Shown here: positions 16,196 through 60,221 of the stretch, piece by piece | Layout of the letters: each line of letters opens with the position of its first letter | Numbering within the stretch: the stretch's first letter is position 1 | NCBI GenBank assembly: GCA_033763455.1 | Contig: JANRKO010000039.1 | Span: forward strand, 96,001 to 160,000 | Direction of reading: 5' to 3' | DNA length: 64,000 bases | DNA from: Polyangiaceae bacterium | GTDB lineage: Bacteria > Myxococcota_A > Polyangia > Polyangiales > Polyangiaceae | Notes under the pieces: model-generated | What the model saw: the letters and a program-made list of their open reading frames with translations, nothing else | The model's database searches: none | What the model was told of the DNA's origin: nothing | Translations under genes and position numbers: made by a program

Positions 16196-16204
16196 GGTGT
16201 CTCC

Positions 16205-18091: not shown

Positions 18092-18424
18092 GAAACACCG
18101 TCTCCGTTTTGCGCTGGAGGTAGGTGGTGACCTCCGCGCTGTTCAGATCATGCCACCAGGCGCCTGCAGGAAGATCCCTATTTTTAGATCGTGTGCACTT
18201 TTACGGCGCCCCATGCCCTTCGGTGCGGCATTTTTAGTCCGAAGCCAGAATAGTGCTCATCCACTGGAAACTCGCGCAAGTCCTGGTTCATTGCGGTACC
18301 AGCGCGGCACGGAGCGCTGGCTTGGTACTTTCGTTCGTGCAGGAGGTGCTTAGCATGACAAGCATCTCTGGCGGACGCAAAAACGGCTGCCTACTGCCAG
18401 CAACCAACTGGGAGCACACCCCTA

Positions 18425-30474: not shown

Positions 30475-30497
30475 CAGTGGTACTCCCTAAACTCAGC

Positions 30498-32207: not shown

Positions 32208-32673
32208 AGCTCTCCTTCGCTCACAGCTCATTACGGAGCTCAGTCTGATCAACGGCACGCGCAGGCTCCTAGTGGCAATGGTCGTCGGCACGCCGACAAC
32301 TCATCTAGGTAAACGAATTGTTCGCGATCAGACTCAAATACACCAGGAGAATTTCCACTAATTTCAAGCAGCTTTGCGCCAACGGTATCAAGCAGTGACC
32401 CGCACATATCCGACATCGTCGACGCGTTCGCGCTCCACCCGGGATTGATAATTACAAGCGGCACTTTCGAGAGCGGTACATATTGCCCACATCGCTCTGG
32501 TGTCTAAGAGCTTTACGGTCCAATCCCGCTATTAATTGTCCAGCCACACGATGCGTGTCCGGACATATTTGCGTCAGATCAGGCCAACACGGTAAGGTAT
32601 CGGCAGAGCCGTTCCGGGTGGTCGCGACGCTCGGGCCGCGGGTGGTGCTGGCTACGTGCCACTCGCCCTGCCC

Positions 32674-45044: not shown

Positions 45045-45179
45045 AACGCGAACTCTCGGGCTTCCCGGCATTTGGCGCTGTTTTTCGGTACGAGAGGTAC
45101 TTCGCATGACAAGTAACTTGGCCTTCAAGCGGGCGCACACTTGCGTTTGCGGGCTGTTTCGACAACCGTGCAAGTCACT

Positions 45180-47744
45180 ATGGGAATTGGCGGTTTCTCA
45201 CGGAGATTGGGCGGTAAGAGTTGGCTTAGGCTAGGCCTTTGGGGGCTTGTGGCGAGCTTTTCCATAGGAGCCTGTGGCAATTCGGACGAAGAAGAGATCC
45301 AGAAGGCGAAGCTCTCTGAAGGCTGCCTCATTAATAGCGACTGCCGAGCGCCGTTAGCCTGCGCCTTTCGCCGCTGTCACACGGCGTGTGAAACCACCCG
45401 AGATTGTGTCGCTCCGCAACTATGCGTGGCGAGCGACAAGCCATTTTCTGTGTGTCAGCTCGAAGACGAGCGTCAGTGCACGTACCATAGTGAGTGTGCT
45501 GGCTCACAGCTCTGCGGCGTTGACGGAAACTGCCGCGACCAGTGTGCCACTTCACGGGATTGTCTGCGGGATCAGGTATGTACGCAAGGAACCTGCGCTG
45601 AGCCTAGCGAACTTCTGAATGGCAGCTTACCGCCGAGTCCGGCGGCTACAGCCGTTGGAGGCCAGGTGTGTACCTACAACTCGGAATGCCCAGGAGATTT
45701 GGTATGTCGCGCAGGTGTGTGCGGCAAAGAGTGCCTTGACACCAAAGATTGCGCGCCGGGTTACCGCTGTAACGCGCAGAATCGTTGCGAAAGTCCCTTA
45801 CAGGGAAGCGCGGGCGCGGGCAACTTGGCGTCGGGTGGCAGCGCCGGCAGCGGTGGCGGCGGCATGAGTGGAGGCAACCAGAACGCAGGCGGAAGCCCGC
45901 TCACTTCCGATGGTGCCGGAGGTATGAGTGCGGCCACTGGAGGTAGCACTGCCACTGGAGGCAGCGGAGGTGCGGGCCCAGAAGTGTGCCCAGGCGCTGG
46001 CTGGACACGCCCCTGCCAAGCGTGTGCCGACGGCCCTGTCGGTGTCCAAGCCTGTGAACAAAACCAAGCTGGCTTTGCTTGGGGCGCGTGCATCGGCGGC
46101 CAGGCTAGCGAAGCCTGTGATGGGAAGGACAACGACTGCGATGGCACACCGGACAACGGAGTGGGCTTCGAGTGCATCCTCGGGCAGACAGCGCAGTGTA
46201 GCCCAGGCGGCAACTGCGCGAGCATTCAGGGGAGCAAGAGCTGCATCGTCGTCGGCAATCTCTGTAAGTACGGTGCTTGCGCCGCGGGCCTAGAAATCTG
46301 TAACGGTGAGGACGACGACTGCAACGGCACTAAAGACGACGGCGCAGGCATGACGTGCATCCTCGGCTCTTCCCCGAGTGCTTGCACGATTTCTAAAAAC
46401 AACTGTAGCCAACCCGGCATTCCCTCCTGCGATGCGGCTTGCCACCTAAAATGCGCACCCGCCGCCGAGATTTGCGACGGGATTGACAATGATTGCGAAG
46501 GCACCATCGATGTTGTTCCGAACGGTATTCAGTGCAAAAAAGACAGCACCGAGCCGTGCATGGTTCAAGCGTGCAACATGACGCTCACAGGCTCACGCAC
46601 GTGCTCAAGTGGCTGCGCCTGGGGCTCTTGCGTGGTGGCGGATGCCTGCAACGATCTGGATGATTCTTGTGACGGCAGAATCGACGAGGGTTACAAGTAC
46701 GTCGCTGGTGTTTCGGGCGTACTGCTGGCTGGAACGTATAACAACACCGGAGTAGCTAGCGTTCTGGATGGCAACACGGTGTGGGTCGGCTGGACCGACG
46801 CAGCGCTGGGGTCCGACAAGCTTCGAGTCGGCAAGTTTGACGTGGCCACGGGCAGCCCCCAGTCGCTGATTGCGGACGCAGGAGTGGGGTTAAGCTTTGG
46901 GAACTACAATCCCGCCTCGGGCGTCAAGATCGGCAACGACGTTTGGTTTGCCGTGATGGGAGCTAACACCACACAGATTTGGGTAGCGCGCGCTAGCGGT
47001 GGCTCACCGGGCGTGGCTCCGGTGCTCACCACTTGGCAGATCGCCGGTCTGCCGGCTTCCGGCGGCTACTACCGGCTCGGGGCTCTCGCTTCAGACGGCA
47101 CGGATCTCTACATCACATACAGGCTAGCTACGGGTCCGCTCCGCGCAGCGCGAATTTCGACATCCACTCTCTTGGTAACCTGGGACCGCGAACTCACGCC
47201 CTCCGAGCCAGCCCCTGCGGCACTCGCGTTCGAGGGGAGCAGCTTGCACGCCATTTGGTGCGATACCGCCCAGGCCAAGTTGCGCCACGCTCGCTTGTCT
47301 ACAAGTGACGGCGTCCCCACGGTGGCGTCTCATATCGTGGTGAACAGCGAATGCACGGCGCCGGGTAAACGCGAAGCATTCGTGGAATACACAAATGGAG
47401 CACTCTTGACCGTGGCTCGATCCGCGACCTTTACCGCTCAAGTCGCCACACTGTCGTTAACTGGGGTAACGCAATCCACCCAAAGCTTCGCCGTGCCCGG
47501 GCAAAATGCTCTGTACTTTGCGCTCCGCGTTGGCAATACCTCAGCCTTCGCGGTAGGGAGCGAAGCGGGGGTTCGTCGCTACTCACAACAAGGAGTTCTC
47601 GCCAGCTCGGCCACCGAAGGCCCCTCCTTGAGCACCTATTCCGCCAATGGCAGCCTACTTTATCCAGCGGGTGGGCCGGTGAGCATCGGAGTGAATCCGA
47701 CGAATCCAGCGCAAATTGTGATGACCCGACTGCAATGTCCGTGA
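45180..47744 (+). CDS. Large Cys-rich lipoprotein with repeated E-x-C-(D/N)-G-x-D-(N/D)-D-C motifs
   Basis: Lipobox IGAC, C-rich repeats, Gly linker, EACDGKDNDCDG / EICNGEDDDCNG / EICDGIDNDCEG, and a beta-rich C-terminus. Confidence 0.8.
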   Translation: MGIGGFSRRLGGKSWLRLGLWGLVASFSIGACGNSDEEEIQKAKLSEGCLINSDCRAPLACAFRRCHTACETTRDCVAPQLCVASDKPFSVCQLEDERQCTYHSECAGSQLCGVDGNCRDQCATSRDCLRDQVCTQGTCAEPSELLNGSLPPSPAATAVGGQVCTYNSECPGDLVCRAGVCGKECLDTKDCAPGYRCNAQNRCESPLQGSAGAGNLASGGSAGSGGGGMSGGNQNAGGSPLTSDGAGGMSAATGGSTATGGSGGAGPEVCPGAGWTRPCQACADGPVGVQACEQNQAGFAWGACIGGQASEACDGKDNDCDGTPDNGVGFECILGQTAQCSPGGNCASIQGSKSCIVVGNLCKYGACAAGLEICNGEDDDCNGTKDDGAGMTCILGSSPSACTISKNNCSQPGIPSCDAACHLKCAPAAEICDGIDNDCEGTIDVVPNGIQCKKDSTEPCMVQACNMTLTGSRTCSSGCAWGSCVVADACNDLDDSCDGRIDEGYKYVAGVSGVLLAGTYNNTGVASVLDGNTVWVGWTDAALGSDKLRVGKFDVATGSPQSLIADAGVGLSFGNYNPASGVKIGNDVWFAVMGANTTQIWVARASGGSPGVAPVLTTWQIAGLPASGGYYRLGALASDGTDLYITYRLATGPLRAARISTSTLLVTWDRELTPSEPAPAALAFEGSSLHAIWCDTAQAKLRHARLSTSDGVPTVASHIVVNSECTAPGKREAFVEYTNGALLTVARSATFTAQVATLSLTGVTQSTQSFAVPGQNALYFALRVGNTSAFAVGSEAGVRRYSQQGVLASSATEGPSLSTYSANGSLLYPAGGPVSIGVNPTNPAQIVMTRLQCP

Positions 47745-47771: not shown

Positions 47772-49124
47772 CTAAGTCGTTAACCCCGGCACGCCCGTTG
47801 TAGCAAGCGCTACATCGCTCCCAAAAGATGTAACCGGGGAGCCCATGATGTTTGCGATGGATAGCAACACTTGGCTCATGTTGCTGCCCGGGTGCCGCAG
47901 GTGTTGATTGCCGGTCAGCTTGCCGCCCGCTTTGCCGATGAGCATGACTGGGAAATCGGTCATCTGGTGTGTCTTACCCCACGCGGTGTCCGTGCTTGAG
48001 TAGATGAGGCTGTAGTCTAGCAAGTTACCCCCTCCCACGCTGATGCCCTGCATCTTCACGAGCATTTCTGCCAGAGATTCCATCGTAAAAAGCACGCCTT
48101 TGTGGACGCGTGTCTGAATATCTGGGCCGGTGTGTCCGCCAGGATCTTCGTGGCAAATCGTGTCGTGGTAGTCGGCGTTCATGTCAGCGCCAAGGCCTCG
48201 GAAATACACGTGCGCCGCCGGCAACATGAACACATAGCTGCCCACGTTCGTGAGCCCGCAGGAAAGTGCAAGAATCATGAGATCCGTCATCGCGGTATTC
48301 ACGGCTGGGGTGGCCTCCTCGTTCTCATCTGCGTCAACGGTTGGGCGCGTTGGGGAGCCGCAAGCGAGCTGTACAGGAGCCACGAGGCGGGACTCAATGG
48401 CACGGATCCCCTCAAGGTGGCTCTCGAGCCTTTGTTGATCTGCCATGCCGAGCCGCCCACGCAAGGCCGCGCCATCGGCGAGCACGGAATCCAACACACT
48501 CCGCTTAACGCCTAGCAATGGAGAGGCTTGCGGTGTGCTCGTGCCCCCCGGCGCCATTTGCGAAAATAGCCTATCAAACACCACCTTTGGGGCGTATTCG
48601 GGGCGCAAGGGAGCTCCGGGGCCGCGGTGAGAAACCGCGTGCAAGGTGATGGCGCCATCTTCATTCGGCGTAGCTGCTGTAACGCCAACTTCGAGCGAAC
48701 GAAACGGCATCCCCGCGGAGGTGATGTCTGCCACCACCTGATCGATCGACGGACCTCCGGGCGTGGTTGTACCTGGAAGAAAGCCACCCACCGTCGCAGC
48801 AGCGGCGCCGCCCCAATGCGTACCAGCATCCACCAAGCTGCCATACCCTGACACCACGGTGAGATATTCCTTCACATGCGCGAGCGGCATCAACTCAGGG
48901 CTAAGCTGCCAATTGGACCCAGTCGCTTCGGGAATAAACATTCCCGGCAAGACACCGTTACCGAAGAACCACGTCAGATAGCGCACCGGTATCGCCGCAC
49001 CCTGTGCGAACGCTGTGCCATTCCCGTTTAACATGATATCGAGCGTGGGTAATGGCACGGCTACGGCTCCACCCGTGGCGAGCAGGCCCTTCAAAACGTG
49101 GCGTCGGCTCAGAGTATTTTTCAT
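47772..49124 (-). CDS. DUF1552 family protein (copy 3)
   Basis: LSRRHVLKG Tat motif, FFGNG, SIDQVVA, PKVVFDRLF and LLDYS. Confidence 0.9.
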   Translation of the reverse strand: MKNTLSRRHVLKGLLATGGAVAVPLPTLDIMLNGNGTAFAQGAAIPVRYLTWFFGNGVLPGMFIPEATGSNWQLSPELMPLAHVKEYLTVVSGYGSLVDAGTHWGGAAAATVGGFLPGTTTPGGPSIDQVVADITSAGMPFRSLEVGVTAATPNEDGAITLHAVSHRGPGAPLRPEYAPKVVFDRLFSQMAPGGTSTPQASPLLGVKRSVLDSVLADGAALRGRLGMADQQRLESHLEGIRAIESRLVAPVQLACGSPTRPTVDADENEEATPAVNTAMTDLMILALSCGLTNVGSYVFMLPAAHVYFRGLGADMNADYHDTICHEDPGGHTGPDIQTRVHKGVLFTMESLAEMLVKMQGISVGGGNLLDYSLIYSSTDTAWGKTHQMTDFPVMLIGKAGGKLTGNQHLRHPGSNMSQVLLSIANIMGSPVTSFGSDVALATTGVPGLTT

Positions 49125-50908
49125 GGTTGAGCACCTTCGCTGGTGAGAAAACGGAAGCCTTCGCTTGTCACAATATCGAGAGCAAGTGGCATTAATCTGT
49201 GCCCTCCAGCAGTGAACTTATCGGTGAGTTGCCTCAAGGGAACGTCTGCCGGGGCACTGAGCGCCGAGCCCGTTCCATAGTGATAGAGGGCGCGCACCAG
49301 GCATTCGGTCGTCGCAAGATTGGCGGCCAACGCTTGCCCAAGCCCTCCGGGGCCGTCGAACGCGACACCGTCGAGAGTGCCGGTAGCATCTACGGGCTTA
49401 CCACTTTCTTCGGTGCGATAAGCGCCGATAGCATCGAAGTTTTCCAGGCCAAAACCAAGCGGATCCATCAGCTGGTGGCAACCTGCGCATGCGGGCATAG
49501 TTGCGTGCTGCAGCAGCTTTTCGCGGTGCGACAAGACTACGCCGGGCGGCGCGTCAGGAAGCTTGGTGTCAACGTTGACTGGAGGCGGCGGAATTGTCTG
49601 GCAAAGGAGCTTTTCTCTGATGAACTTGCCGCGCGTGGTCGGGGAAGATTGAACCTGGTTGGCGTAGAGCGAAAGGAAAACACCCGAGGCCAAAAGGCCT
49701 GCCCGCGGGCTATCGGCTGGGGCATCCATCTTTACCAGCGCATCTGAGAGCCCGTCCGTTGGCAATCCGTACAGCTTTGCCAAGTCCAGATTCACGTAGC
49801 GCGTTCGAGTGGTAAGAAGATCCAGCGCACTCGCAGCCGGATCCTGCATGGTCCCTTCAAAGAGAGCTCTGACCTCAGCTCCCATGGCAGACGCTAAGCT
49901 GGGCGTAAAGTCCGGAAATAGCGCGGTATCTTTGGCAATGCTCGAAACGCGATCGAGGTCATAGTAATCGGAAGCAAAGCCGCCCACAGTAGCTTTTCCT
50001 TGTGGACTATTGAGCATCCGCATCGCCTCAGCTCGCACTCCATCCACTGTTGTCAGCGTGCCGGCTTCGGCTGCTTTCAGTAAAGCATCGTCAGGCGGCG
50101 CGCCCCAAAGGAAGAAGGATAGCCGGCTAGCGACTTCCAAGTCTGTGGCCTGAAACAGTCCAGCCTGCCCGTTCACCGGCACGCCAAGTTCTGGGCGGTA
50201 AAGAAAACTGAGCGACTGAAGCAGCGCAGAGGCCGACCACCGCGGGCCTGCATAAGGATCGGTAAGCGCTTGGGCCGAAGCTTCTGCCACCCCTACGTAA
50301 CGCAGCACTTCCTCTGGAGCGAGCGTGCGCCGAAACACCAGGCGCCCAAAACGCTGCACGAAATCCCCCGTACACGCATCGTTGGTTACCGTTTTGGGTT
50401 CACAACCCACAAATGCTGAGCGTTTTGCGACATCGCCAAACACTTGGTCCAAAGCGTCATCCACCGCCTCTTGATACTGTTCGACGCCTCTAAGCGAAGT
50501 GACCACGGTGCGGGCGCCAACTACTGCCAACCCGTTCGCGCGCCCATCGGCTTGAACCGGCTTGATGTTGACCGAACCGAGCAGCGCTCGGAGTGAATTG
50601 TTGAATTGTTCCGTTGTTAACCGCCGGAAAGCCTGCGGACTGGCGGGAAACGCGACAGCCGTGGAAACGCCAGGCCCAGGTGGGGTGCCGGGAAGAGGCG
50701 TTCCCGTGGCTCCGCTCGTCGGTGTTGCCGCTGAGCCGCCGGGCATTGTGGTGACATCGACGGTAGTGGCTGGACCTGGCGTGCCCTGAGCTCGACCCGA
50801 CGAAGGACCGCCGCCAGCAACTGCCGTGCAACCCATACTAAGCGGTAGACCTACGGCGACAGCGAACTTTTGGCACCAATGCGCGCGACGTTGAGCAAAC
50901 TTCGGCAT
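49121..50908 (-). CDS. DUF1592/DUF1588 domain lipoprotein with CxxCH (copy 3)
   Basis: Lipobox SMGC, RRLTTEQFNNS, ASRLSFFLW..PPD, SPTTRG and CAGCHQLMDPLGFGLE; ATGA overlap with the DUF1552 gene. Confidence 0.9.
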   Translation of the reverse strand: MPKFAQRRAHWCQKFAVAVGLPLSMGCTAVAGGGPSSGRAQGTPGPATTVDVTTMPGGSAATPTSGATGTPLPGTPPGPGVSTAVAFPASPQAFRRLTTEQFNNSLRALLGSVNIKPVQADGRANGLAVVGARTVVTSLRGVEQYQEAVDDALDQVFGDVAKRSAFVGCEPKTVTNDACTGDFVQRFGRLVFRRTLAPEEVLRYVGVAEASAQALTDPYAGPRWSASALLQSLSFLYRPELGVPVNGQAGLFQATDLEVASRLSFFLWGAPPDDALLKAAEAGTLTTVDGVRAEAMRMLNSPQGKATVGGFASDYYDLDRVSSIAKDTALFPDFTPSLASAMGAEVRALFEGTMQDPAASALDLLTTRTRYVNLDLAKLYGLPTDGLSDALVKMDAPADSPRAGLLASGVFLSLYANQVQSSPTTRGKFIREKLLCQTIPPPPVNVDTKLPDAPPGVVLSHREKLLQHATMPACAGCHQLMDPLGFGLENFDAIGAYRTEESGKPVDATGTLDGVAFDGPGGLGQALAANLATTECLVRALYHYGTGSALSAPADVPLRQLTDKFTAGGHRLMPLALDIVTSEGFRFLTSEGAQP

Positions 50909-50953
50909 AACGGTTTCAGGTCCAGGTAAGAGGGCGAGATTTCCCTCTTTGGC

Positions 50954-50986
50954 TGGTTAGTCGCCGACGGCGTACGATCGGCTACG
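50954..50986 (-). promoter_or_regulatory. Putative ECF promoter, copy upstream of the DUF1592 gene
   Basis: Plus strand TGGTTAGTCGCC-N11-ATCGGCTACG. Confidence 0.8.
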
Positions 50987-51026
50987 CGCGAAACCGAAAA
51001 AACAATCGAGCACGGGATTTGGGCGC

Positions 51027-52217
51027 TCAGGGTTTTCTTTCCTCCGAAAGTCGTAACAACAGCTTCTGAGCTTGCGGTGCAAATGAGCCGTGGGGGTGCA
51101 ACGACAAGTAGCGATTCAGCAATTGTCGTGCGTTTTCTTGTGAGCTGTGTTGCACAGCGAGGCTCGCGGCGGCAAAGCGCGCCATCTCAGCTTGAGACGT
51201 GCCAGGATATTGCGAAGCTACCTCCTGATAACGTCGGATCCCTTCGGAGAAGCGACCTTGCGCCACCAGATCTTCGGCGGAACGAAGGGCTTCCCCCGCC
51301 TTTACCCGGACATCTGGCGTTTTCGGGGCAGATAACACTTCTGTGGCCTTCGATTGTGGTTCGTTAGCAACTCCGGGCGTTGGCGTGGACGGCGCCTCTG
51401 ACCCATGCGGCGGCGCTCCTGTGGAAGACGCGGCTGGTGCGGACAGCACCGCTTTGGGTGGCTGACTTGCACCGGCGCTGCTCCAACCGTCCCCGGCTCT
51501 GAGCGTTACTTTTACGCCGCCCGCACGCGGCAGCACCTCCACAACACCCTCTGAAACCTTTACGGAGCTCCAATTGGCTTCTCGCCGCACGGTGAAATGA
51601 GTGCCCACCACACGGATTTGAGCCTCTTTGGTCCACACCGAAAAGCCCTCCCCGCCCTTTAAGTGTCGCACGGAGAGCGCAACCTTCCCCGCTACCAGCT
51701 GGAGCGTACGGCCCCCCGAGGAGAGCCGCGAGCCTGGCTCAGCCGTTACCCTGGAACCATCTTGCAACTCAAGCTCCGCCGGCACTTCACCACCCACTTC
51801 GAGCTCATTGCCTGGCAGCACAACACCAGCAACAGCCCGACCGCCGCTCGAAACCTGCCCAGACATCACGCGAGCGAAGCCTTCGCCAGTCTCGGCAACT
51901 TGCGCGGAGTCACGCAGCAAAAACACTAAAAATGCCCCGGCGGCTGCTAGAGCGAAGGCACCCCCGGCCCAGGCCAAAGGACGGTAACCCCGACTCACTC
52001 GGATCCCGCTCGGCCGGGCTTCTGCTAACGCTGCTCGCACCTCTGCAAGTTGCTTCGCCTCAGGCACAGGGGTGGCTTCGAACTCCGCGACACGATCGAG
52101 CACGGTTTCGAGCGCGCGCAGGTTTTGAGCGGATGTAGGATCCCCTGCGGCACGGCCGAGCTCTTCCGAACGCGCCTTTCGGACTCCTTCCCAACTCTGG
52201 CCTTTAGGTGTTTTCAT
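51027..52217 (-). CDS. FecR-domain anti-sigma-like membrane protein with a C-terminal TPR
   Basis: Single TM helix, LQDGSRV, IRVVGTHFTV, VKVSEGVVEV and YLSLHPHGSFA. Confidence 0.85.
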   Translation of the reverse strand: MKTPKGQSWEGVRKARSEELGRAAGDPTSAQNLRALETVLDRVAEFEATPVPEAKQLAEVRAALAEARPSGIRVSRGYRPLAWAGGAFALAAAGAFLVFLLRDSAQVAETGEGFARVMSGQVSSGGRAVAGVVLPGNELEVGGEVPAELELQDGSRVTAEPGSRLSSGGRTLQLVAGKVALSVRHLKGGEGFSVWTKEAQIRVVGTHFTVRREANWSSVKVSEGVVEVLPRAGGVKVTLRAGDGWSSAGASQPPKAVLSAPAASSTGAPPHGSEAPSTPTPGVANEPQSKATEVLSAPKTPDVRVKAGEALRSAEDLVAQGRFSEGIRRYQEVASQYPGTSQAEMARFAAASLAVQHSSQENARQLLNRYLSLHPHGSFAPQAQKLLLRLSEERKP

Positions 52218-52259
52218 AGGATCCCGAGCCCAACGTGGGCGGAATTTCCCTCTTTGGCA

Positions 52260-52292
52260 TGGTTAGTCGCCAGCGCCACGATATCGGCTACG
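52260..52292 (-). promoter_or_regulatory. Putative ECF promoter, copy upstream of the FecR-like gene
   Basis: Same two boxes with the same 11-nt spacer. Confidence 0.8.
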
Positions 52293-52346
52293 CCCTCAGC
52301 CGAAAAATCTCCAAAGCCGCGATCTCGCGTCGGTTCTCGCTTCTGT

Positions 52347-52973
52347 TCAGAGCTCATCGGCATTCACCTCGCGCATCACCTGAGAAACCACGTCGCTGTC
52401 CCTATCCCCGAGCTCCTGCTTGAGTTGGCTGAGCACTTTGCGACGTGCAAAATAGAGACGGGCGCGCGTGGCGGCCTTGCTGGCACCCATCATCCTGGCC
52501 ACTTCTTCCACGGCGTGCCCATAGAGCACCCGCAACACGAAAGCTGTGCACTGTTCCGGAGAGAGGGTATCCAAGATGGAACGGACAATATTCAGCATAT
52601 CGCGCGCTTCGAGCGTCGCTCCAGGCTCCAAGAAGTTCGCCTCTTCCGTCAGACGCTGATGCGCCATCTCTGCACGCTGGCGCCGAGTTTTTCGACGCAG
52701 ATGATCTTTCACCACATTGGCACAGACCCCCCGCACCCAGGTACTCGGCTGAGATTCTTGTGCAAAATGAGCGAGCCCGCGCGTGACGCGGATCATGGCC
52801 TGTTGTTGCAGCTCTTCCAAATCGTCAATCCGCCCAAACGTTAGCTGAATCAATGTTGCACGAATAAACGAGTAATAGTGCAGTAAGAACCGCTCCTGCG
52901 CCTGGAGATCACCTGCTATGGCCTGAGCGGCGAGGCGCGGCTCAATCTCGGAGGTTTTTTCTGGTTGAGTCAT
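52347..52973 (-). CDS. ECF sigma-70 factor
   Basis: Region 2 (DDLEELQQQ..STWVRGVCANVVKDHLRR) and region 4 (LSPEQCTAFVLR..EEVARMMG..TRARLYFARRK). Confidence 0.9.
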   Translation of the reverse strand: MTQPEKTSEIEPRLAAQAIAGDLQAQERFLLHYYSFIRATLIQLTFGRIDDLEELQQQAMIRVTRGLAHFAQESQPSTWVRGVCANVVKDHLRRKTRRQRAEMAHQRLTEEANFLEPGATLEARDMLNIVRSILDTLSPEQCTAFVLRVLYGHAVEEVARMMGASKAATRARLYFARRKVLSQLKQELGDRDSDVVSQVMREVNADEL

Positions 52974-52988
52974 GCGCACGCTGAGCCC

Positions 52989-54035
52989 TTACAGGTTCAT
53001 GACCCCACCAAGTGCTAAGCGGAGGCGCAGGTGCCCGGTGTCGAGCGCCGTTTCCCGAGCAACCATAACTTTTCCCGCCACTGGGAGTATTTCGACGCCA
53101 GCCTCCCAGCTCAAAGAAAAACGCGGGGACAACCGGTGCTGGTTCCAAAGGCTTGCCCGAAAGAAAGGCGCGAACGTGTTCGCTAAATGGCGCGCATTAC
53201 CCGCCCCATTCACCGCCAACGAGCTCTTTACCCAAGTGGCGCCCGCCTGCCCGCCCCAAAAAATGCTCCAGGCCGCTCCATCCGACAGACGGCCAGGACG
53301 AACGTCTACTCCAAGCCGAGCCGTCTGATTCTCGTACACGCCAAGAGGCGTCGAACGGGAGCTTATCCGCCCCACTTCCAAAACGCCACCCACAAAGTGA
53401 CTCTGCCAGCCGTAACCTGAAACCGCTCCAACGTCCAATTCTAAAATAGCATCTAATGCGGTCAATCCAGCCACATTTGCCATAATTAGGAAGCGCTCAG
53501 GCTCGACTGGAGCACGCTCAGCCTTTTGATTGGTTTGGGCCTTCTGCTCAACGGGCTTGCGCAGCTCTGATGGTGGAGCTTGAGGTGTCGCAGTTGGCAA
53601 GTTACTCGCCGCCGCAGCGATTTCCCCGCGCACCAAGAGGGCTAGATACCTGCCAGCGTCGTCCACCTTGGAGGGCAATTTCTCGGACGTTCGCGCCGCG
53701 CTGTTGTCCGCACGGCGCAGGTCGAAAATATCGATATCAAGATCGATCCCCCCAGGAGCAACATTGAGAAAAACGACCAAATCCGCTGAATGCGCACGTC
53801 GGATCTCAGCGAGCTCTCGCTGGATATCGCGGCGCAGAGGCCGTGCGGTAGCATCAAAATCGCGCAGGTAGATCTGAATAGCTTCTCCAGCCGTTGCGAA
53901 CTTATCGCCGTCGAAGCCGGCTCCGAACAGCACAAGCGCGCGGACTCCCTCTGACTTCGCCGCCACCGAGGGCGACCAGAGCCACGCGGAAACCAAAAGA
54001 CATAGGCTCAGGCCGACGGCGCGTAGGCGGCTCAT
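52989..54035 (-). CDS. Secreted protein with a possible C-terminal beta-barrel
   Basis: Signal peptide MSRLRAVGLSLCLLVSAWLWSPSVAA, Pro-rich linker and amphipathic beta strands; lies between the lectin and sigma genes. Confidence 0.6.
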   Translation of the reverse strand: MSRLRAVGLSLCLLVSAWLWSPSVAAKSEGVRALVLFGAGFDGDKFATAGEAIQIYLRDFDATARPLRRDIQRELAEIRRAHSADLVVFLNVAPGGIDLDIDIFDLRRADNSAARTSEKLPSKVDDAGRYLALLVRGEIAAAASNLPTATPQAPPSELRKPVEQKAQTNQKAERAPVEPERFLIMANVAGLTALDAILELDVGAVSGYGWQSHFVGGVLEVGRISSRSTPLGVYENQTARLGVDVRPGRLSDGAAWSIFWGGQAGATWVKSSLAVNGAGNARHLANTFAPFFRASLWNQHRLSPRFSLSWEAGVEILPVAGKVMVARETALDTGHLRLRLALGGVMNL

Positions 54036-54652
54036 AGCTCGGCAGCCCACACTTCCACCTCGGAAAAGCTGAGCGTGTGGCGTTCTTGGCTAGTGTCCGT
54101 ATCGTTTGCAAGAGCACACAGAGACGCGTCGACCTGAGGCTGATCCAAGCGGCGTTCGACGCGAATCACACTCCCCTTCACCAAAGCGGGAGCCTCTCGA
54201 AAGAGGTCGATTTCAAAACGCTCGGGGCCACACAGAACATTCGCAGGATTGAGCAATTTCCCACTGTTCGCTTGGTAGTCGAAGACCTTGGCCCCTGAAG
54301 GCCCCTCCAACACTACTACGTTGAGGTCCCGAGCGCGGCCTTGGCAACAATCCTTACGGTTCCAGAGCACTACGCGCCGAATCAACTCGGGACGCGCAAG
54401 GGCGACCTCCCACCATTCAAAAACCTCGCTGTCGCCCGTGGTTGCGCTAAAGGTTGCAGCATTGCCGTCTATCGCCAGCCGAGCATCAAAAGCATTTGAA
54501 CTCTGCGAAGCGACACCACTTCGGGCCACCTCGACGAGCGGCACATCCTCGAGTGCATGCACGGTTTGCGTACACCCGACCGCACCCAAACAAAGTGGCA
54601 GCATCCATCGAACGCCTAGCCGAACCCCTTCAGCCGACCAAGCGTGAACCAT
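54032..54652 (-). CDS. Lipoprotein with an F-type lectin / F5/8-C galactose-binding-like domain
   Basis: Lipobox AVGC, ASQSS..A.LAIDG, WWEVAL, LWNRKDCCQGR and LSFSEVEVW. Confidence 0.75.
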   Translation of the reverse strand: MVHAWSAEGVRLGVRWMLPLCLGAVGCTQTVHALEDVPLVEVARSGVASQSSNAFDARLAIDGNAATFSATTGDSEVFEWWEVALARPELIRRVVLWNRKDCCQGRARDLNVVVLEGPSGAKVFDYQANSGKLLNPANVLCGPERFEIDLFREAPALVKGSVIRVERRLDQPQVDASLCALANDTDTSQERHTLSFSEVEVWAAEL

Positions 54653-54743
54653 CGCTTCATGAGTTTAGCGGCTCGTTGGGTGCACGCAACGCGAAGAGTT
54701 AGCGAAATCAAGCTCTTGCGCTTGATGCCACAGGCCCGCTCGT

Positions 54744-54776
54744 TGGTTAGTCGCCTGGGTCCGCAGATCGGCTACG
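54744..54776 (-). promoter_or_regulatory. Putative ECF promoter, copy upstream of the lectin-barrel-sigma operon
   Basis: Same two boxes with the same 11-nt spacer. Confidence 0.8.
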
Positions 54777-54874: not shown

Positions 54875-55612
54875 TCACGTCTCGAACGGCAGCCGTACGG
54901 TGGCGACCGCGCCGCCTTCCGGATGATTCTTGAGCTCCAGCTTTCCGCCGTAGGATTCGACAATTCCACGGCTCACGTAGAGGCCAAGGCCAGCTGCGCC
55001 CTGGGTTTTCCGTGTCGTAAAGAAGGCATCAAACAGGCGTGGTTGCACCTCTTCGCTCAAGCCCGGGCCGTTGTCACACACTTCCAGGTAAATCCAATTC
55101 TTGTCCTGAAACGTCCGCAAGATAACGGTGTTGTCGTCTCGCTTACGTCCGAGGGATTCGCAGGCTTGTGCGGAATTCAACAACAGATTAAGCGTTACCT
55201 GGGCGAGGTGCGCTTCGCAGATCTGAATCGGCCGTGTCTCCAACAATTCGTGCACAATCCGACATACGGGCTGCACCTGGCGCGCGGCTAACCTCACGGT
55301 GAGCAGCACCACATCGTTGATTTGAAGAGCACGCGGCGCTTGACTCGGCGAAAGTACCAAACTGCGAAAATCTCGAAGCGCTCGCGAAACTCTACCAGTA
55401 GCCTGCAAAGCTTCTTGAGCGTGCGGCAAGAGTTCCGCCAGAACAGGATTGGCCGGGGCGAGCTCGCGCATCCGCGCGACCAGGTGATCCAGGCTGTCTG
55501 TCCCGGGCGTCAACTGGTCGGTAGCTTCCACCACGAAGCCTTCCCCTAAAAGGCCCACCTTGGTGATCTGATCGGCGCGCATTCTGCGAGAAAAAGTAGG
55601 GTCTTTGAGCAC
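54875..55612 (-). CDS. Histidine-kinase-like protein (HATPase intact, H-box His missing)
   Basis: QVTLNLLLNS, DNGPG, LFDAFFTT and GLGL; AAGGAG RBS before GTG 55612. Confidence 0.75.
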   Translation of the reverse strand: MLKDPTFSRRMRADQITKVGLLGEGFVVEATDQLTPGTDSLDHLVARMRELAPANPVLAELLPHAQEALQATGRVSRALRDFRSLVLSPSQAPRALQINDVVLLTVRLAARQVQPVCRIVHELLETRPIQICEAHLAQVTLNLLLNSAQACESLGRKRDDNTVILRTFQDKNWIYLEVCDNGPGLSEEVQPRLFDAFFTTRKTQGAAGLGLYVSRGIVESYGGKLELKNHPEGGAVATVRLPFET

Positions 55613-56021
55613 GGATTCTCCTTCCGCAGCCCAATACCACAGCGGTTGCAGCATGTCGCGCCGCAACCTTGCCTGCACCAGGCTAAAGCCAACCCTACAG
55701 CACTTCCGCCGCTGACACACGCCGGAAACCAAACCTCACCCATAGCGGCACTCGCGACAAGACGATCCACATCTTGGCCTTGGCAATGCGCGCCAGGAGT
55801 TAACGAGCGTAGGGCGTGAGTGTTTAGGCCGCATCTTATCGCAACTGCGCAGCGCAGGCACGACGCCTAATCAGCGGACAGCCACTGGCTAACTTGCACA
55901 CTCTGGTTTCACCTGCGGGAACACTCGCCCGAGCTAGTTAAAGTGGAAGCAAGCGGAGCTTTTCAACCAGCTCTCGGGGACTCACGAAAGTCACGGAAAG
56001 TGCATCCGTCCGCATCGAATA

Positions 56022-59000
56022 TCAAACGGCCTCCTCAGGGACCTCGGGAACACTGGGCGAGACGGGTTCCGGCAAGGGTTCCGGCAAGGGTTCCGGCAAG
56101 GGTGGCGTCAACAGCACCAGCCAACCCCAGCGCAGCCAACCGAGGAGACGCGAGGCCAACCAAAGCGACCACACGAGCATGAGTCCGCGCCACACCCAAA
56201 TCGAAGTTCCGACTACCATCGGCGTTGGGAGCGAAGCGGGCGACCGATCCGTGTACCAAACCAGGCGTGCCGCTGTGCTTCCTGCTCCCTCGACCTGCAT
56301 ATCCGGCACCACAACGAGCCCCGAATACACAGCTGTGCCGAGCGTTCCCAGCATCACCAGAGTCGCTATCACCAAACCCATAATAATGAGGCGACGCCAC
56401 CAGCGAGCACGGAGACCCACTCGTTCGAACCAAGCGAACGCGAAAAACCAAGCCGGAACAAGCACTGCCAGGGGGGCGGGAATTTGAGTCAGCCCGAGAG
56501 CGAGTCCCAACCATTCAAGACGACGGAGCCTTGAGCCTGGAAGGTGTCCCAGGACAAACGCGGCTAAGCACACAACGGCGAGATAACCCCAAAACAAGAC
56601 CGAAGGTCCGAAATCAGGACCCGCAAGGGCCAGCAACCACCGCTCCTGGTTGGGCTCTGCGATCACCACGACGTTGGCCGCGCCGCCTTCGAGCACTACC
56701 TCGGACGCTTGCCAGAACGTGCTGATCCCTTGCGGCTCTTGCCACGCGAGCCGCACCTCCGAAAGACCGGGACTGAGCCCGATCGCGACAGCTCCGCCCT
56801 CAAGGCGCGAAGCACGTGCTTCGCCAGCCACCGTAAGTTCCTGCAAGACCGCCCCCTTCGGCAATGTAACCCGCTGGGTTCCACCCGAACTTGAACGGAC
56901 CTGAAACGTCAGGCTGGAACGCGTGAGCCGTTCACCTGGAGTGATGGTCAGTGTTGCGCCTTCGATCGTTTTGGAGGTGCCCGGCACTGGCAACGGACGG
57001 GACACGGCAATCTCGATCTTTTCGCCCGCAAAGGGGCGCCATAGCGGCCGCCAACGCTGCTCAAGATCATGTCGCACAGGAGCCAAGCCGGTGGCCTTGC
57101 AGTGCCAAACAAAGCCACAGTCGAGACTCCACACTTCGGCGTAGTTCGTGCCGACGGCAGCGCTCAACAACAGGCGATCCCGCGGTTCGAGAGTGCTGGT
57201 CCAAACGAGCTCGGTTTGCCCACGAGGCAATGAAGCGAGCACGCTTCCGCCTTCCACCGGTACATCGGCAACAGTGACGCGTTCGCCGAGCAAAAGCGGG
57301 ACTCGCACCAAAACTGGCAAATCAGTGGACGTTTCGCGCACCAGACGAGACCGGACGACCCAGCTAACACCGAGCTCGACCTCGCGTGTGAGCGTGAGCC
57401 ACGGGGGCAAACTTGGAGTGCCTGCTTCACTTCCGGCCGCTGCACTCGTCCCCCGGTCGCGGCGTGTAAACGTGACGGCGCCTTCGAGTCGTCCATCCCG
57501 ACCCACCCCGCTCACATCCCACCCTGGTGCCGTGACGACCACGCGTTGCGGCTTGTCGGCAAGCTCCAGCGCTAGATCGTTTACAAGCAACGGACCCTTC
57601 ATCACGACCTGTTGTCGACCCGCAGGGATACGGGCGACCAGCACACCACCCTCGAGCGCCACAGGGGCATGCGCATCGCTCCCGAGCGCTACATTTTCCG
57701 GCACCCAAGCCACGACGGGGCCAGGCAACCTGAGCCGAGTTGCAGCGCCGGCATGCACATCGAGAACTATTGTGAGCGTCGAACCTGTGATCTTCACCTC
57801 GGCACGGGACACGGAAAGGCAGTTGGTGCAGGCGGGCGACAAAGTAAGGCGGCGCGCCAGCTCTGACAGCCGTTCATCGGTGACCTCAGCAGCTGGGCTT
57901 TTACTGCTTTCCGCATTCGCGTGCGTCGAGTAGCCGAGCACGGCGAGCATGGCCCCGATCAGGATCGATGTAATGAGGACCTGAGACGGCGATTCTGGTG
58001 GCGGAGTGCCCGGACGCTGCTCCGTATTCCCCGTTGAGCGGGACCTCCACCAGGCAAGCTTGGCCAAAAGGAGCCCAAACCCAACAACACCTAACACTCG
58101 CAGTACTTCGAGGAGTCTCACGCACCAGGGGGGCAAAAGCCAGAGCCTGAATTGATGCTCACGCGCAACGGGACCGTTCCAGATGAGGCTCTCGGTGTTC
58201 CAAGACCAATGCGGCACGCCGGGGCCCGTCTGCACCACAGCTTTTGGATCTTGGGCGAGGTTTTGGTACGAGTACCCAGCTTTGGATTTCGAAGCCCAAC
58301 GCGAGGAAACATTATCCGCTTGGCCCTTCGGAGGCTCCGGCGCTGCATCCGCGGCGACCTCCTTTTCGTCGGCTTGCTCGAGCGGTGCCACAGCTTGCGG
58401 AACCGGTGCGCGCTTCTCCCGGGCTCCCCCGAGAGTTGACCACGAACTCGCACCCTCGCTGCTATTTCCGCCGTTGACGAGCAGTGGATGCACGGCGGCG
58501 CGCAAATGGGTCGCCGCGAAGGGTACTGCCAGAACCACCCACGCACCTGCAACCACGAGCGATACCGCGATCAGCAGCGGACGCAAAAACGGGGGCACCG
58601 TTGCCTTGCGAAGCGCGACCACCACCAAGAGGGCAGCCCAAATCCAAAACGGGGCGTCACTCTCGCCATGAGCGGCGACAAGAGTCGTAAAGCCAAGCAG
58701 CGCGAGCCCACGGCCGCCGAGCTTGAGCGCAGCGAGAGTCACCAACAAAAGATAGAAAATTGCAAAAAGGTCCCAGCTTGAGAGCCAGGAGCTCGGTGCG
58801 GAATCCACGCCACTTGCCCCAAAAAAGAGCCAGCCTGGCGGGAGGTGCAAGGAAGCGCTCAGGCTTTGCACGTCTTCGCTCCAGCCGTTAGCCGGAAGCT
58901 TTATCGCACGCGGCAAGCGAAATTCTGCTTCGAGATTCAGAATCGAATTGCGCAATTCAACTCCGCCTGGCCCGGCTGACACGAGCGATGTCACGAGCTC

Positions 59001-60221
59001 GGGGTTGCCATCCACGCGGATTGTCCCCGGCAACTGGGCTCGAAGCTCCAGCCGATGCTCGCGCTTCACGCTCCCGGAGAGCACGTCCTTAACCGTGTAC
59101 CCGTGTCCGTCAAAGTCTAACCACAGGTCTCGTACGAGGTTGATTTGGTTGGGTGGCGGCTCCGCGTTACCTCGACGTAAGGTAGAAAACGTGAGCGCGT
59201 CGTTAGCTCGCAACTCAAACGCAGCGAGATTTTTCCAGCTTTCGTCAAGCCCCGTGCGCGCTGGGTCAATTTCCCGGGCGCCCACGATGGCCACTTCTCT
59301 GAGTTCGGAAGAGGGCGCCCAAACCCATATTTCGGTGGCTGGCCACGGCTCCGGGCGGGGCTGCAGGAGGATGCGCTCCGGGGCACCTTCTGCTCGCGCC
59401 TGCACCTCGACCGTGTGCGTTCCGGCGCGGAGTTGCACCACTAGTTCACCGGACGTTTCGAGCCGCGCAGGCAATTCAGAAGTCAACGCAAGCGGAACCG
59501 TCTTTGGCAACAAAACGTTCCCGAGCGGCGCCTCACGCGCTCGCCCCGAAGCTCGCAGCACCAGGCGTGTCGTGATACGCAGGGGAACTCCGTCGTCGAT
59601 GCGACGGAATACTTCCATTGAGAGTGAGTCTGTAGCGGCCCCCTCTGAGGCAGCGCTCGCTCCAAGCCACAAGCGCCCGTCACCTTCGCGTCGCGGAGCT
59701 AGCACCCGCTTACCTTCCACCGTGAGTGCCACAACACCGGTTCGCGCGCCGATAGCCAGCGTTTCCGGCATCTCATTCCAGGAGAATTCGCCCTCGATGC
59801 GATGATTGCCAGGAGTGAGCCAAGTGGTTGGTTCGCCCCCCTCCGCCAACACCACCACATCCTTGCCATCCAACTTAACGGCTTCAGGCCAAACGCCGTC
59901 GGCTCCAGGCAGCGTCACAGGCGCCAAAGCATCGGTGCGAACGTAGAGCACAAACCGTCCTTGTTTGGCGCCCACTTCAAGCTCCAAGAACCCAGGCCAG
60001 ACGCAGCTCCGTTCCTGATCAGAACCCAGGACGCACTCTCTCTCCCCCTGATCCCAGAGCACCCACGGGACCCAATCCCGAAGCTCGGGTGGCACCTCTG
60101 CCAGGCTGAGGGGTCTCTTCTCAACGCCTGTGTCGGCGTGGCTGAACGGGGCAAACACGAGCGTGGCGAGCGCAACGACAATGCCCAAAGCAAACCTTAA
60201 CATCCCAAACATGACACCCAT
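56022..60221 (-). CDS. Large multi-domain membrane protein of unknown function
   Basis: 1399-aa ORF with a signal peptide and two beta-rich soluble regions, each followed by a TM bundle. Confidence 0.8.
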   Translation of the reverse strand: MGVMFGMLRFALGIVVALATLVFAPFSHADTGVEKRPLSLAEVPPELRDWVPWVLWDQGERECVLGSDQERSCVWPGFLELEVGAKQGRFVLYVRTDALAPVTLPGADGVWPEAVKLDGKDVVVLAEGGEPTTWLTPGNHRIEGEFSWNEMPETLAIGARTGVVALTVEGKRVLAPRREGDGRLWLGASAASEGAATDSLSMEVFRRIDDGVPLRITTRLVLRASGRAREAPLGNVLLPKTVPLALTSELPARLETSGELVVQLRAGTHTVEVQARAEGAPERILLQPRPEPWPATEIWVWAPSSELREVAIVGAREIDPARTGLDESWKNLAAFELRANDALTFSTLRRGNAEPPPNQINLVRDLWLDFDGHGYTVKDVLSGSVKREHRLELRAQLPGTIRVDGNPELVTSLVSAGPGGVELRNSILNLEAEFRLPRAIKLPANGWSEDVQSLSASLHLPPGWLFFGASGVDSAPSSWLSSWDLFAIFYLLLVTLAALKLGGRGLALLGFTTLVAAHGESDAPFWIWAALLVVVALRKATVPPFLRPLLIAVSLVVAGAWVVLAVPFAATHLRAAVHPLLVNGGNSSEGASSWSTLGGAREKRAPVPQAVAPLEQADEKEVAADAAPEPPKGQADNVSSRWASKSKAGYSYQNLAQDPKAVVQTGPGVPHWSWNTESLIWNGPVAREHQFRLWLLPPWCVRLLEVLRVLGVVGFGLLLAKLAWWRSRSTGNTEQRPGTPPPESPSQVLITSILIGAMLAVLGYSTHANAESSKSPAAEVTDERLSELARRLTLSPACTNCLSVSRAEVKITGSTLTIVLDVHAGAATRLRLPGPVVAWVPENVALGSDAHAPVALEGGVLVARIPAGRQQVVMKGPLLVNDLALELADKPQRVVVTAPGWDVSGVGRDGRLEGAVTFTRRDRGTSAAAGSEAGTPSLPPWLTLTREVELGVSWVVRSRLVRETSTDLPVLVRVPLLLGERVTVADVPVEGGSVLASLPRGQTELVWTSTLEPRDRLLLSAAVGTNYAEVWSLDCGFVWHCKATGLAPVRHDLEQRWRPLWRPFAGEKIEIAVSRPLPVPGTSKTIEGATLTITPGERLTRSSLTFQVRSSSGGTQRVTLPKGAVLQELTVAGEARASRLEGGAVAIGLSPGLSEVRLAWQEPQGISTFWQASEVVLEGGAANVVVIAEPNQERWLLALAGPDFGPSVLFWGYLAVVCLAAFVLGHLPGSRLRRLEWLGLALGLTQIPAPLAVLVPAWFFAFAWFERVGLRARWWRRLIIMGLVIATLVMLGTLGTAVYSGLVVVPDMQVEGAGSTAARLVWYTDRSPASLPTPMVVGTSIWVWRGLMLVWSLWLASRLLGWLRWGWLVLLTPPLPEPLPEPLPEPVSPSVPEVPEEAV
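56064..56099. repeat. 12-bp tandem repeat x3 (encodes LPEP x3)
   Basis: GGGTTCCGGCAA x3. Confidence 0.9.

Follow-up and report, generated by a model that had tools for sequence, protein, structure and literature searches.

Three promoter-like sites around an ECF sigma module

Three identical two-box sites in a Polyangiaceae genome very probably act as promoters of the adjacent ECF sigma factor, and a three-promoter switch that links this sigma to an outer-membrane barrel is, on balance, our favored explanation of the locus as a whole. Within the window (the entire 64,000-nt stretch of DNA analyzed), a pattern search confirmed the original prediction of three exact minus-strand copies of CGTAGCCGAT-N11-GGCGACTAACCA, located at 54744-54776 (copy 1), 52260-52292 (copy 2), and 50954-50986 (copy 3), with identical boxes and spacers of equal length and differing sequence (27-36% identity, against 100% for the boxes); 100 shuffles gave no match. 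Each copy is directed into the gene downstream. Copy 1, with a -35 GTAGCC and a -10 CGACTAA separated by 16 nt, heads the lectin-barrel-sigma-anti-sigma genes and has a predicted start at ~54740; copy 2 heads the anti-sigma gene only; and copy 3 heads a DUF1592-DUF1552 pair, with a predicted start at ~50950 and a leader of ~42 nt. The gene labels first assigned from sequence (lectin, ECF sigma, FecR, DUF1592, and DUF1552) hold in a Pfam scan, and the downstream sequence said to be common to two copies proved to be a 15-mer, GCCAAAGAGGGAAAT, present twice in the genome, after copy 2 (52244..52258, minus strand) and copy 3 (50939..50953, minus strand), where it would form the start of the transcript.

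Across the whole 6.56-Mb genome, GTAGCC-N16-CGACTA occurs three times, always at this locus, and the next-best sites carry four mismatches. A weight matrix whose training set included the three copies themselves scored them at 37.2 bits versus 21.5 for the next genomic site, and the pattern and matrix scans found no further motif sites in the genome that would point to a wider regulon. Scans for sigma70 promoters and terminators stayed at chance level. A local ECF regulon of three promoters is in itself nothing unusual; 47.8% of ECFs regulate three or fewer promoters (PMC7776599).

All copies had also been described as intergenic and well oriented; the orientation stood for all three, and the intergenic placement failed for copy 2. 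This copy sits inside a 130-nt gap between the sigma and anti-sigma genes that is itself spanned by a 47-codon frame (52214..52357, minus strand), which runs into both the end of the sigma gene (stop codon) and the beginning of the anti-sigma gene (start codon) and opens at the ATG position where the anti-sigma of the sister species G001 and G003 starts. The frame may keep translational coupling or may be a relic. In G001 and G003, copy 2 is absent and the sigma and anti-sigma genes overlap. Contigs from other runs span copy 2 without a gap, and it is therefore no assembly artifact; it is present in other strains, and in three runs it reads ATAGCC instead of GTAGCC. Because of the 15-nt sequence that they have in common, copy 2 is suggested to derive from copy 3, probably by duplication, as an addition specific to this lineage; it would drive only the anti-sigma and, by analogy, could provide negative feedback on the sigma.

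Conservation of the motif and its association with the sigma factor

The sigma gene (52347..52979, minus strand) encodes a protein of 208-210 aa with Pfam matches to sigma70 r2, r4_2, and ECF and a TIGR02937 match over cut-off. The motif pattern was found in three of the 151 family genomes searched (a control pattern gave one match), and among the 41 genomes searched for the sigma, a 66-67% identical protein is encoded in the same three motif genomes; the sister genome G002 has neither sigma nor motif. Copies 1 and 3 are retained in both G001 and G003, copy 1 at the same place, and at these orthologous sites the boxes are kept whereas the spacer and flanks are scrambled, being only 9-50% identical between the genome under study (G000) and G001/G003. 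In G001, an antisense AAA_14/DUF4143 gene lies between the anti-sigma and the DUF pair. In G025, from another family and with a sigma of 35% identity, TAGCCGAT-N13-CGACT has a single exact match genome-wide, directly adjoining the start of that sigma, and the predicted transcription start falls within the first codons of the sigma.

A paralogous sigma served as a control: TGAAAR-N16-CAACTAAC, with a different -35, occurs just upstream of its gene, once per genome, in 4/4 genomes (a count that includes G002, which was left out of deriving the paralog motif). Together, the phylogenetic footprint, the co-occurrence with the sigma, and this paralogous control argue for the reading originally proposed, in which the repeats are ECF-type promoters of the local sigma. 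The rule of Todor et al. ties an A at -11 to an acidic residue at the RpoE Lys56 position, where this sigma presumably has an Arg, and so fails to predict this -10; the motif was not found in the eight supplements of that paper.

A metagenome pattern scan retrieved 13 stretches, 11 of them unrelated chance matches and two from a single contig that is almost the same as the G003 locus, and thus no new independent locus. A related-loci search with the sigma yielded one irrelevant match. When other ECF/FecR modules were surveyed, a 6+6-mer search for exact repeated motifs produced only noise, a loose regular-expression scan was uninformative, and a pairwise box search over the modules of the genus yielded signals that clearly exceeded the null only at the orthologous loci. 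The host of the motif is a soil or sediment myxobacterium.

Anti-sigma and predicted outer-membrane barrel

The anti-sigma (51027..52217, minus strand; Pfam FecR domain and weak TPR) comprises a cytoplasmic N-terminus, one TM helix, a FecR domain with an invariant Gly205-Thr206, a linker, and a C-terminal CpoB/BamD-like TPR standing where FecR_C would be. The gene at 52989..54050 (minus strand; likely start ATG 54035) encodes an unnamed predicted outer-membrane protein without a Pfam match, modeled (pLDDT 76.9, pTM 0.47) as a signal peptide, a TolB-N-like alpha/beta domain, a Pro-rich linker, and an 8-stranded OmpA-type barrel. In fold searches, the barrel part matched NspA (Z 16.8, rmsd 2.8, 151 aligned) and the alpha/beta domain matched TolB (Z 8.8, rmsd 3.4, 109 aligned). 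An eight-stranded fold behind a signal peptide fits the OmpA type, the membrane location being predicted, and the last residue is Leu, with no terminal aromatic.

Sequence searches with the barrel protein gave only 3, 2, and 2 matches, the family being reachable only by a paralog profile or through the Atlas, where it forms 30 unnamed clusters, most commonly from Myxococcota. A sigma gene is found no more than 2.5 kb away from 14 of the 16 barrel paralogs and from 7 of the 9 that were not used as seeds, versus 5% of all genes. Across the phylum, a sigma or FecR/TPR neighbor lies within 1.5 kb for 29 of the 32 barrel matches beyond the genus; a single genus contributes 22 of these 32 loci, and 7 of the other ten have such a neighbor.

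A complex between the anti-sigma TPR and the TolB-N-like domain was predicted at 0.72 versus 0.00 for the best control; 116 of 157 solved pairs pass the mark for a complex, as do 2 of 215 mismatched ones, a calibration that is only rough with own alignments. At least 44% of contacts agree between runs, and the partner pLDDT is at least 79. The predicted interface covers residues 304-393 of the anti-sigma and takes in four of the few features invariant in six barrels (A57, Y61, R134, and the L138/R141 helix). The model may be biased toward the generic mode of a TPR groove holding an amphipathic helix, and we consider it probable that the TPR docks on the TolB-N-like domain of the barrel protein.

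No TonB-dependent transducer is encoded at the locus. Searches of the genome gave 13 FecR matches and none to FecR_C (PF16344), and they found no STN-bearing TonB receptor, the single STN match being a PilQ-type secretin. Since it also encodes nine TonB-receptor barrels and is 93.7% complete, a receptor may have been missed. The barrel fold, the predicted TPR-barrel contact, and the lack of any FecR_C or STN receptor match agree with the earlier suggestion of surface signaling without a TonB receptor.

The best-surviving alternative, which we judge unlikely, accepts the sites as ECF promoters and regards the barrel and lectin as mere outputs, with the anti-sigma sensing a periplasmic cue directly or via an unlinked TonB receptor. 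Copy 1 precedes both genes, which the sigma would therefore induce, the nine TonB-receptor barrels are at hand, some FecR modules in the same genome (C5:15k, C89, and C74) have no barrel neighbor, and the TPR-barrel contact comes from one prediction. However, that prediction is clearly separated from its control, no STN was found on a TonB receptor and no FecR_C on an anti-sigma, and the barrel accompanies the sigma and anti-sigma while gene order and cargo genes change, as a core part would.

Other readings of the repeated boxes

The motif might instead be the operator of a dimeric regulator rather than a sigma promoter, as the boxes also pair in an imperfect inverted repeat (TAGCCG-N15-CGACTA, with five invariant or near-invariant pairs) and the gene immediately upstream encodes a histidine kinase. 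Only in G000 does this kinase lie there, the G001 and G003 loci having no match to it. From genome to genome, the motif goes together with the sigma; all eight sites, from four genomes, show the same asymmetry, with a fixed 16-17 nt box spacing, a free spacer, and direction into a gene; and the site of the paralogous sigma shares the -10 tail but is not palindromic. We regard the operator reading as highly improbable. Least credible is that the copies are a local duplication, dispersed repeat, or RNA element without promoter function: copies 2 and 3 do share an upstream T-tract beside their 15 further bases, but the genome holds only three copies, whose spacers have diverged around unchanged boxes conserved across three species, an Rfam search found no match at E up to 1, and the consensus fold reaches only -2.5 kcal/mol with 0 compensatory changes.

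Lectin-like lipoprotein and DUF1592-DUF1552 pair

The F-type-lectin-like lipoprotein (54032..54652, minus strand; Cys27 lipobox) carries an F5/8-type domain (PF22633/PF00754) and matches PDB fucolectins at E 2e-6 to 1e-3. The fucose-binding motif of F-type lectins consists of a His plus R-x-D-x4-R. In an alignment to FBP32, the R-x-D-C-C-x-x-R part is present and the His is replaced by Ala; the G001 version keeps the His. The original hint of glycan or prey sensing is not supported; the lectin of this strain lacks the fucose-site His, and by analogy it could only tentatively be cast as a surface sensor.

Behind copy 3 lie a DUF1592-family lipoprotein gene (49121..50908, minus strand; Cys27; Pfam DUF1587/1595/1592/1588/1585), whose product has one CxxCH heme motif (C474-H478), and a gene for a DUF1552 protein (47772..49124, minus strand; Pfam) with a twin-arginine signal and an alkaline-phosphatase/sulfatase-like fold model. 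The pair exists in about 80 copies in the genome. Among the 79 DUF1592 paralogs used (80 matches, one of which, not mapped to a gene, was dropped), CxxCH is present in 78, conservation of the lipobox Cys column reaches 97%, and the promoter motif lies upstream of only one. Eight loci of the same DUF1552 subfamily in seven other genomes have no sigma module or motif nearby; the proposal that the locus gives a general clue to DUF1592/DUF1552 function is not supported. Raw ACTAA counts, unadjusted for intergenic content and set aside, are 14 in 79 DUF1592 upstream regions versus 355 in 4920 genes.

The DUF1552 model aligned with PafA at Z 16.9 (rmsd 3.7, 273 aligned), with many sulfatases and NPPs scoring within 1-2 Z of this, and the predicted core alpha/beta fold is that of the alkaline phosphatase/sulfatase superfamily; identity to the superfamily is 6-14%, and DUF1552 lacks the Asp pair in the first strand. 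Its conserved residues are H103, H320, H325, H386, and C255/C289. Given four conserved His and a first strand without the Asp pair, no activity can be named. PDB sequence searches with DUF1552 and DUF1592 returned nothing below E 0.5, the Atlas linked DUF1592 to no outside family, and the locus leaves the substrate of the pair unrevealed. In the available portions of PMC5615132, PSCyt3/PSD (DUF1588/DUF1592) and DUF1552 form a conserved pair whose function is stated to be unknown, with a carbohydrate link suggested from fused CBMs and sulfatase neighbors. Compared with the pairs described there, the heme protein here is a lipoprotein without a fused CBM, and the pair occurs in about 80 copies, one with a defined predicted promoter.

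A proposed switch and its relation to known systems

In the switch that we favor, the three promoters would make up everything that the neighboring ECF sigma controls. This sigma would be restrained by the single-pass anti-sigma, whose TPR would grip the TolB-N-like domain hung by a flexible linker from the barrel, the pair spanning the envelope. A cue at the barrel, perhaps via the lectin-like lipoprotein, would free the TPR; the anti-sigma would then be degraded and the sigma set free, boosting its own operon through copy 1 and inducing the heme-lipoprotein/Tat-metalloenzyme pair through copy 3, while in this species copy 2 would yield extra anti-sigma, ending the pulse. We infer release, proteolysis, feedback, and any lectin role by analogy with the Fec/Pup systems.

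As far as the available text of PMC9249621 extends, FecA-FecR-FecI likewise combines an ECF sigma with a single-pass FecR anti-sigma bearing a Gly-Thr self-cleavage motif, and a tethered periplasmic domain of its outer-membrane partner meets the anti-sigma C-terminus, as is predicted here. By the same portions of that account, the systems differ in the partner (a TonB-dependent transporter with a signaling domain in Fec; an 8-stranded barrel plus TolB-N-like domain here), the anti-sigma C-terminus (FecR_C versus TPR), the transcription of the regulators (sigma70 for fecIR versus apparent autoregulation of the sigma), and the target (iron uptake versus something else). The accessible parts of the ECF267 description (Casas-Pastor et al. 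2021, PMC7826278, and its preprint) place that group far from the FecI clade, give it a FecR-like anti-sigma with TPRs at +1, as is found here, and state its regulation as unclear; these parts mention no barrel, lipoprotein, or promoter. ECF267 is defined there with a conserved Ser/Thr kinase neighbor, whereas none was found among the 12 window proteins scanned or in the locus gene list.

Closer in its link is Dma1, in which, independently of TonB, a flexible tether crossing the periplasm connects an 8-stranded outer-membrane barrel with an anti-sigma domain in the cytoplasm. Dma1 is, however, one polypeptide, whereas the link here is split in two at a predicted TPR/TolB-N-like joint, with barrel and anti-sigma encoded by separate genes in all loci examined, outside the single-chain definition of Dma proteins; a FecR domain and a co-encoded lipoprotein are added. 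Neither the barrel module nor this promoter turned up in searches of the open-access literature.

Cell-surface signaling is known to run through TonB-dependent transducers, to which the single-chain Dma proteins have lately been added; the split form, with a TPR under a barrel, would be a third wiring and would explain FecR-like/TPR anti-sigmas whose regulation the ECF classification left open. The locus is directly testable, with the sigma, anti-sigma, barrel, exact promoter, and natural variants in hand, and the fold assigned to DUF1552, its His pattern, and the growth of the pair to about 80 copies in one genus offer handles on a long-unexplained family. A broader and rather doubtful possibility is that polyangia use a TonB-free two-piece switch with a swappable lipoprotein reader and orthogonal promoters, built on a common ACTAA -10 core, for each paralog, and that in this genus such switches choose among the roughly 80 pairs. 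If so, the pairs would constitute a redox-coupled substrate-attack system playing the role of Bacteroidota glycan-utilization loci, and with the motif here a promoter of one such pair would have become readable for the first time.

A conserved promoter-like motif confined to the sigma locus

The motif occurs in three exact copies on the minus strand of the window, just as originally described: copy 1 (54744-54776) before the lectin gene, copy 2 (52260-52292) between the sigma and anti-sigma genes, and copy 3 (50954-50986) before the DUF1592 gene, with 0 matches in 100 shuffled controls. In the source genome, G000 (6.56 Mb scanned, 93.7% complete), GTAGCC-N16-CGACTA was restricted to these three sites; the sites ranking next carry four mismatches, and a weight matrix derived from eight sites scored the copies at 37.2 bits and the next G000 site at 21.5 bits. 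The motif is therefore not a genome-wide dispersed repeat, the outcome that would have spoken against the original prediction, and with only three sites the regulon of the adjacent sigma factor appears to be local. Excerpts of Todor et al. (PMC7776599) put the share of ECFs with at most three target promoters at 47.8% and the peak of ECF leader lengths at 20-40 nt; the predicted leaders are ~39 nt for copy 2, ~42 nt for copy 3, and ~88 nt for copy 1.

A search of 41 related genomes recovered a sigma ortholog (66-67% identical) in two species of the same genus, G001 and G003, and no such sigma in a third, G002. Both loci retain all six genes, and in each the motif precedes the lectin gene as well as the DUF1592 gene. 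Compared with the G000 sites, identity is 100% in box 1 and 75-92% in box 2, against 9-50% in spacers and flanks. When the pattern was relaxed slightly, three of the 151 family genomes gave a match, namely G000, G001, and G003 (control, 1 match). In G001, an antisense AAA_14/DUF4143 gene splits the anti-sigma gene from the DUF1592 gene, and the motif stays with the latter. A palindromic element lies upstream of this insert (L022:7031-8209), and a remnant of the element persists in G003 (L023 near 4870); AAA_14/DUF4143-like genes also flank other modules in G000 (L048 near 14186).

Beyond the family, the closest sigma (35% identical, G025) carries TAGCCGAT-N13-CGACT at its start, the sole exact match in that genome. 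There the -10 overlaps the apparent sigma ATG (L025:8461-8495), and a transcript would lack the sigma start and encode the anti-sigma only; with its predicted start shortly within the sigma gene, this site would act much as copy 2 is proposed to, or the start is misread. In another relative, G017, TAGCC-N17-CATCTAAC lies between barrel and sigma genes (L024:3838-3875; sigma 39% identical) as a possible variant promoter, and the sigma has Glu in region 2.4 where the others have Asp.

Two points count against the motif being a promoter of the local sigma: its boxes pair as an imperfect inverted repeat, and the residue that we take to be the equivalent of RpoE Lys56 is Arg rather than acidic. The rule by which a -11 A goes with an acidic residue at that position comes from an excerpt of Todor et al. 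(PMC7776599). Supporting the original prediction of an ECF promoter are the conserved boxes around diverged spacers, the co-occurrence with the sigma, and the paralog control below, and we read the motif as a predicted, footprinted ECF promoter of the local sigma.

Related candidate promoters of paralogous sigma factors

The paralogous C74 sigma is preceded by TGAAAR-N16-CAACTAAC, whose boxes are conserved around a diverged spacer (L056:3760-3800, L066, L074, G002:C148:4401-4430). It occurs once per genome in all four members of the genus (G000-G003), including G002, which played no part in deriving it; it has the -10 tail of the window motif and is probably an autoregulatory promoter. Before a second paralog, the C23 sigma, TGAGCC-N17-ACACTA is conserved in three genomes (L051, L065, L077; 2 matches in G000), a candidate promoter of another barrel-linked sigma. 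An ACTAA tail 16-17 nt from differing -35 hexamers before differing ECF genes is, at the sequence level, the look of an ECF promoter family.

Copy 2 as a putative derived feedback promoter

In G001 and G003, the sigma and anti-sigma genes overlap and copy 2 is absent, whereas in G000 a 130-nt gap, present in other strains as well, harbours it. The gap contains a 47-codon frame running from the ancestral coupling ATG to the new anti-sigma start, and copies 2 and 3 have 15 downstream bases in common. We infer that copy 2 is a derived promoter from which anti-sigma would be made without sigma, i.e. negative feedback.

The barrel protein and its predicted contact with the anti-sigma factor

The locus comprises, in order, genes for an F5/8-type lectin lipoprotein, an unnamed 348-aa protein, the ECF sigma, a FecR/TPR protein, a DUF1592-family protein, and DUF1552. 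Named relatives come from Polyangiaceae/Myxococcota, which points to a polyangian myxobacterium, and the best DNA matches are sediment metagenomes. In a model of the 348-aa protein built from six sequences (pLDDT 76.9, pTM 0.47), residues 33-144 form an alpha/beta domain; a Pro-rich linker of low confidence and an eight-stranded barrel follow. The barrel matches NspA (Z 16.8, rmsd 2.8, 151 aligned), OprF, and OmpA, and the N-domain aligns with that of TolB (Z 8.8, rmsd 3.4, 109 aligned); since aminoacyl-tRNA synthetase domains score nearly as high (Z 8.7), "TolB-N-like" is a descriptive name only.

A profile of barrels adjoining other sigma/FecR pairs links transitively to the window barrel. 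Of the 16 family members in G000, 14 have a sigma gene no more than 2.5 kb away, versus 5% of genes (7/9 without seeds picked for that neighbourhood). In genomes outside the genus, a sigma or FecR/TPR gene lies no more than 1.5 kb from 29 of 32 matches, a count that omits hits in G000 and the G025 seed; 22 of the 32 come from one genus, and the other 10 include 7 positives. The accompanying lipoproteins vary (PA14, laminin-G, VWA, CAP, glycoside hydrolase, alginate lyase, cytochrome). We found no description of the module in the open-access literature.

A Gly-Thr, described in an excerpt of PMC9249621 as the self-cleavage site of FecR/FoxR, is kept in 19 aligned FecR-like proteins, each ending in a CpoB/BamD-like TPR. 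In Fec/Pup systems, according to the same excerpt, a TonB-dependent transducer docks on the C-terminal part through its signalling domain. Profile searches of G000 (93.7% complete) gave 13 FecR and 9 TonB-receptor barrel matches, no FecR_C, and no STN on a TonB receptor, the sole STN match being a secretin. When the periplasmic part of the anti-sigma was co-folded with the N-domain of the barrel protein, the score was 0.72 (best control 0.00), with at least 44% of contacts in agreement between runs and partner pLDDT of at least 79; the mark was attained by 116/157 solved versus 2/215 mismatched pairs, figures that apply only roughly to the present alignments. The TPR (304-393) packs against helices 57-64 and 121-150 in the prediction, and the few invariant residues of the barrel family fall at these helices. 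The model supports binding of the barrel N-domain by the anti-sigma TPR and, with the profile counts, favours the predicted signalling without a TonB receptor. No comparable solved complex is known to us.

The DUF1592/DUF1552 pairs

G000 has 83 DUF1552 and 80 DUF1592 matches (~80 pairs). Each of the genus's four genomes has 86-98 first-look candidates (91-98 in the three sisters) versus 0-29 in 37 others, a genus-level expansion; the window itself contains two further pairs, near 15200-18100 and 29400-32300. DUF1592 proteins carry CxxCH in 78/79 and a lipobox Cys in nearly all. DUF1552 proteins carry a twin-arginine motif in 69/75, with conserved H103, H320, H325, H386, and C255/C289; the model (pLDDT 85.6, pTM 0.82) shows the fold of alkaline phosphatases and sulfatases (PafA, Z 16.9, rmsd 3.7, 273 aligned; Foldseek E 7.5e-7) at ~10% identity. 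As a best guess, DUF1552 is a His-ligated metalloenzyme that is exported by Tat and kept at a membrane by a mono-heme, electron-passing partner. An excerpt of He et al. (PMC5615132) calls the pair's function unknown and suggests a carbohydrate link.

The motif precedes 1 of 79 DUF1592 genes in G000, and fetched DNA of eight loci from seven other genomes (two on short contigs) with DUF1552 50-56% identical showed no sigma, barrel, FecR, or motif. The tie to the window sigma is narrow, and the regulatory clue to DUF1592/DUF1552 function originally proposed is not supported for the family at large. A looser association exists within G000, where 12 of the 48 sigma genes have a DUF1592 gene no more than 4 kb away, versus 9.5% of genes (binomial p 0.0014, inflated by accessory-gene clustering). 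In G003, a second pair follows the first (L023:8184-12466) beside a convergent LacI/AraC regulator, XylR-like by sequence pattern, hinting that some pairs may be under sugar-linked control.

The lectin is F-type-like; because the fucose-site His is replaced by Ala in the window strain, glycan sensing stays a guess, and we found no support for the proposed prey sensing. A histidine-kinase-like ATPase gene (54875-55732, minus strand) ends 99 nt ahead of copy 1 and has no match in the G001/G003 loci. Farther upstream, a 1399-aa secreted/membrane protein (56022-60221, minus) has no Pfam or NCBIfam match. On the plus strand, the gene for a Cys-rich 867-aa lipoprotein (45141-47744), which carries PF11617 repeats and probably a beta-rich domain at its C-terminus, is convergent with the DUF1552 gene; an Hcp-family gene (PF05638; 42337-42954), apparently outside a type VI cluster, opens with a signal-peptide-like stretch; and, within 39266-42306, an arginase/agmatinase-family gene is coupled to that of a 628-aa CbiX-domain protein whose C-terminal half is unassigned.

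Comparison with known systems

The window system would operate like FecA-FecR-FecI, yet misses two defining features, FecR_C and the STN transducer. With ECF267, compared by description only from excerpts of PMC7826278 and a preprint, it has the FecR-like/TPR anti-sigma in common but not the Ser/Thr kinase. Dma1 of Bacteroides, as excerpted from PMC10927553, offers a parallel in which barrel and anti-sigma form one chain, unlike the separate genes here. The motif and module are a real feature, and to these systems the locus adds an exact, footprinted predicted promoter, a putatively derived feedback copy, related candidate promoters of paralogs, and a modeled fold for the target.
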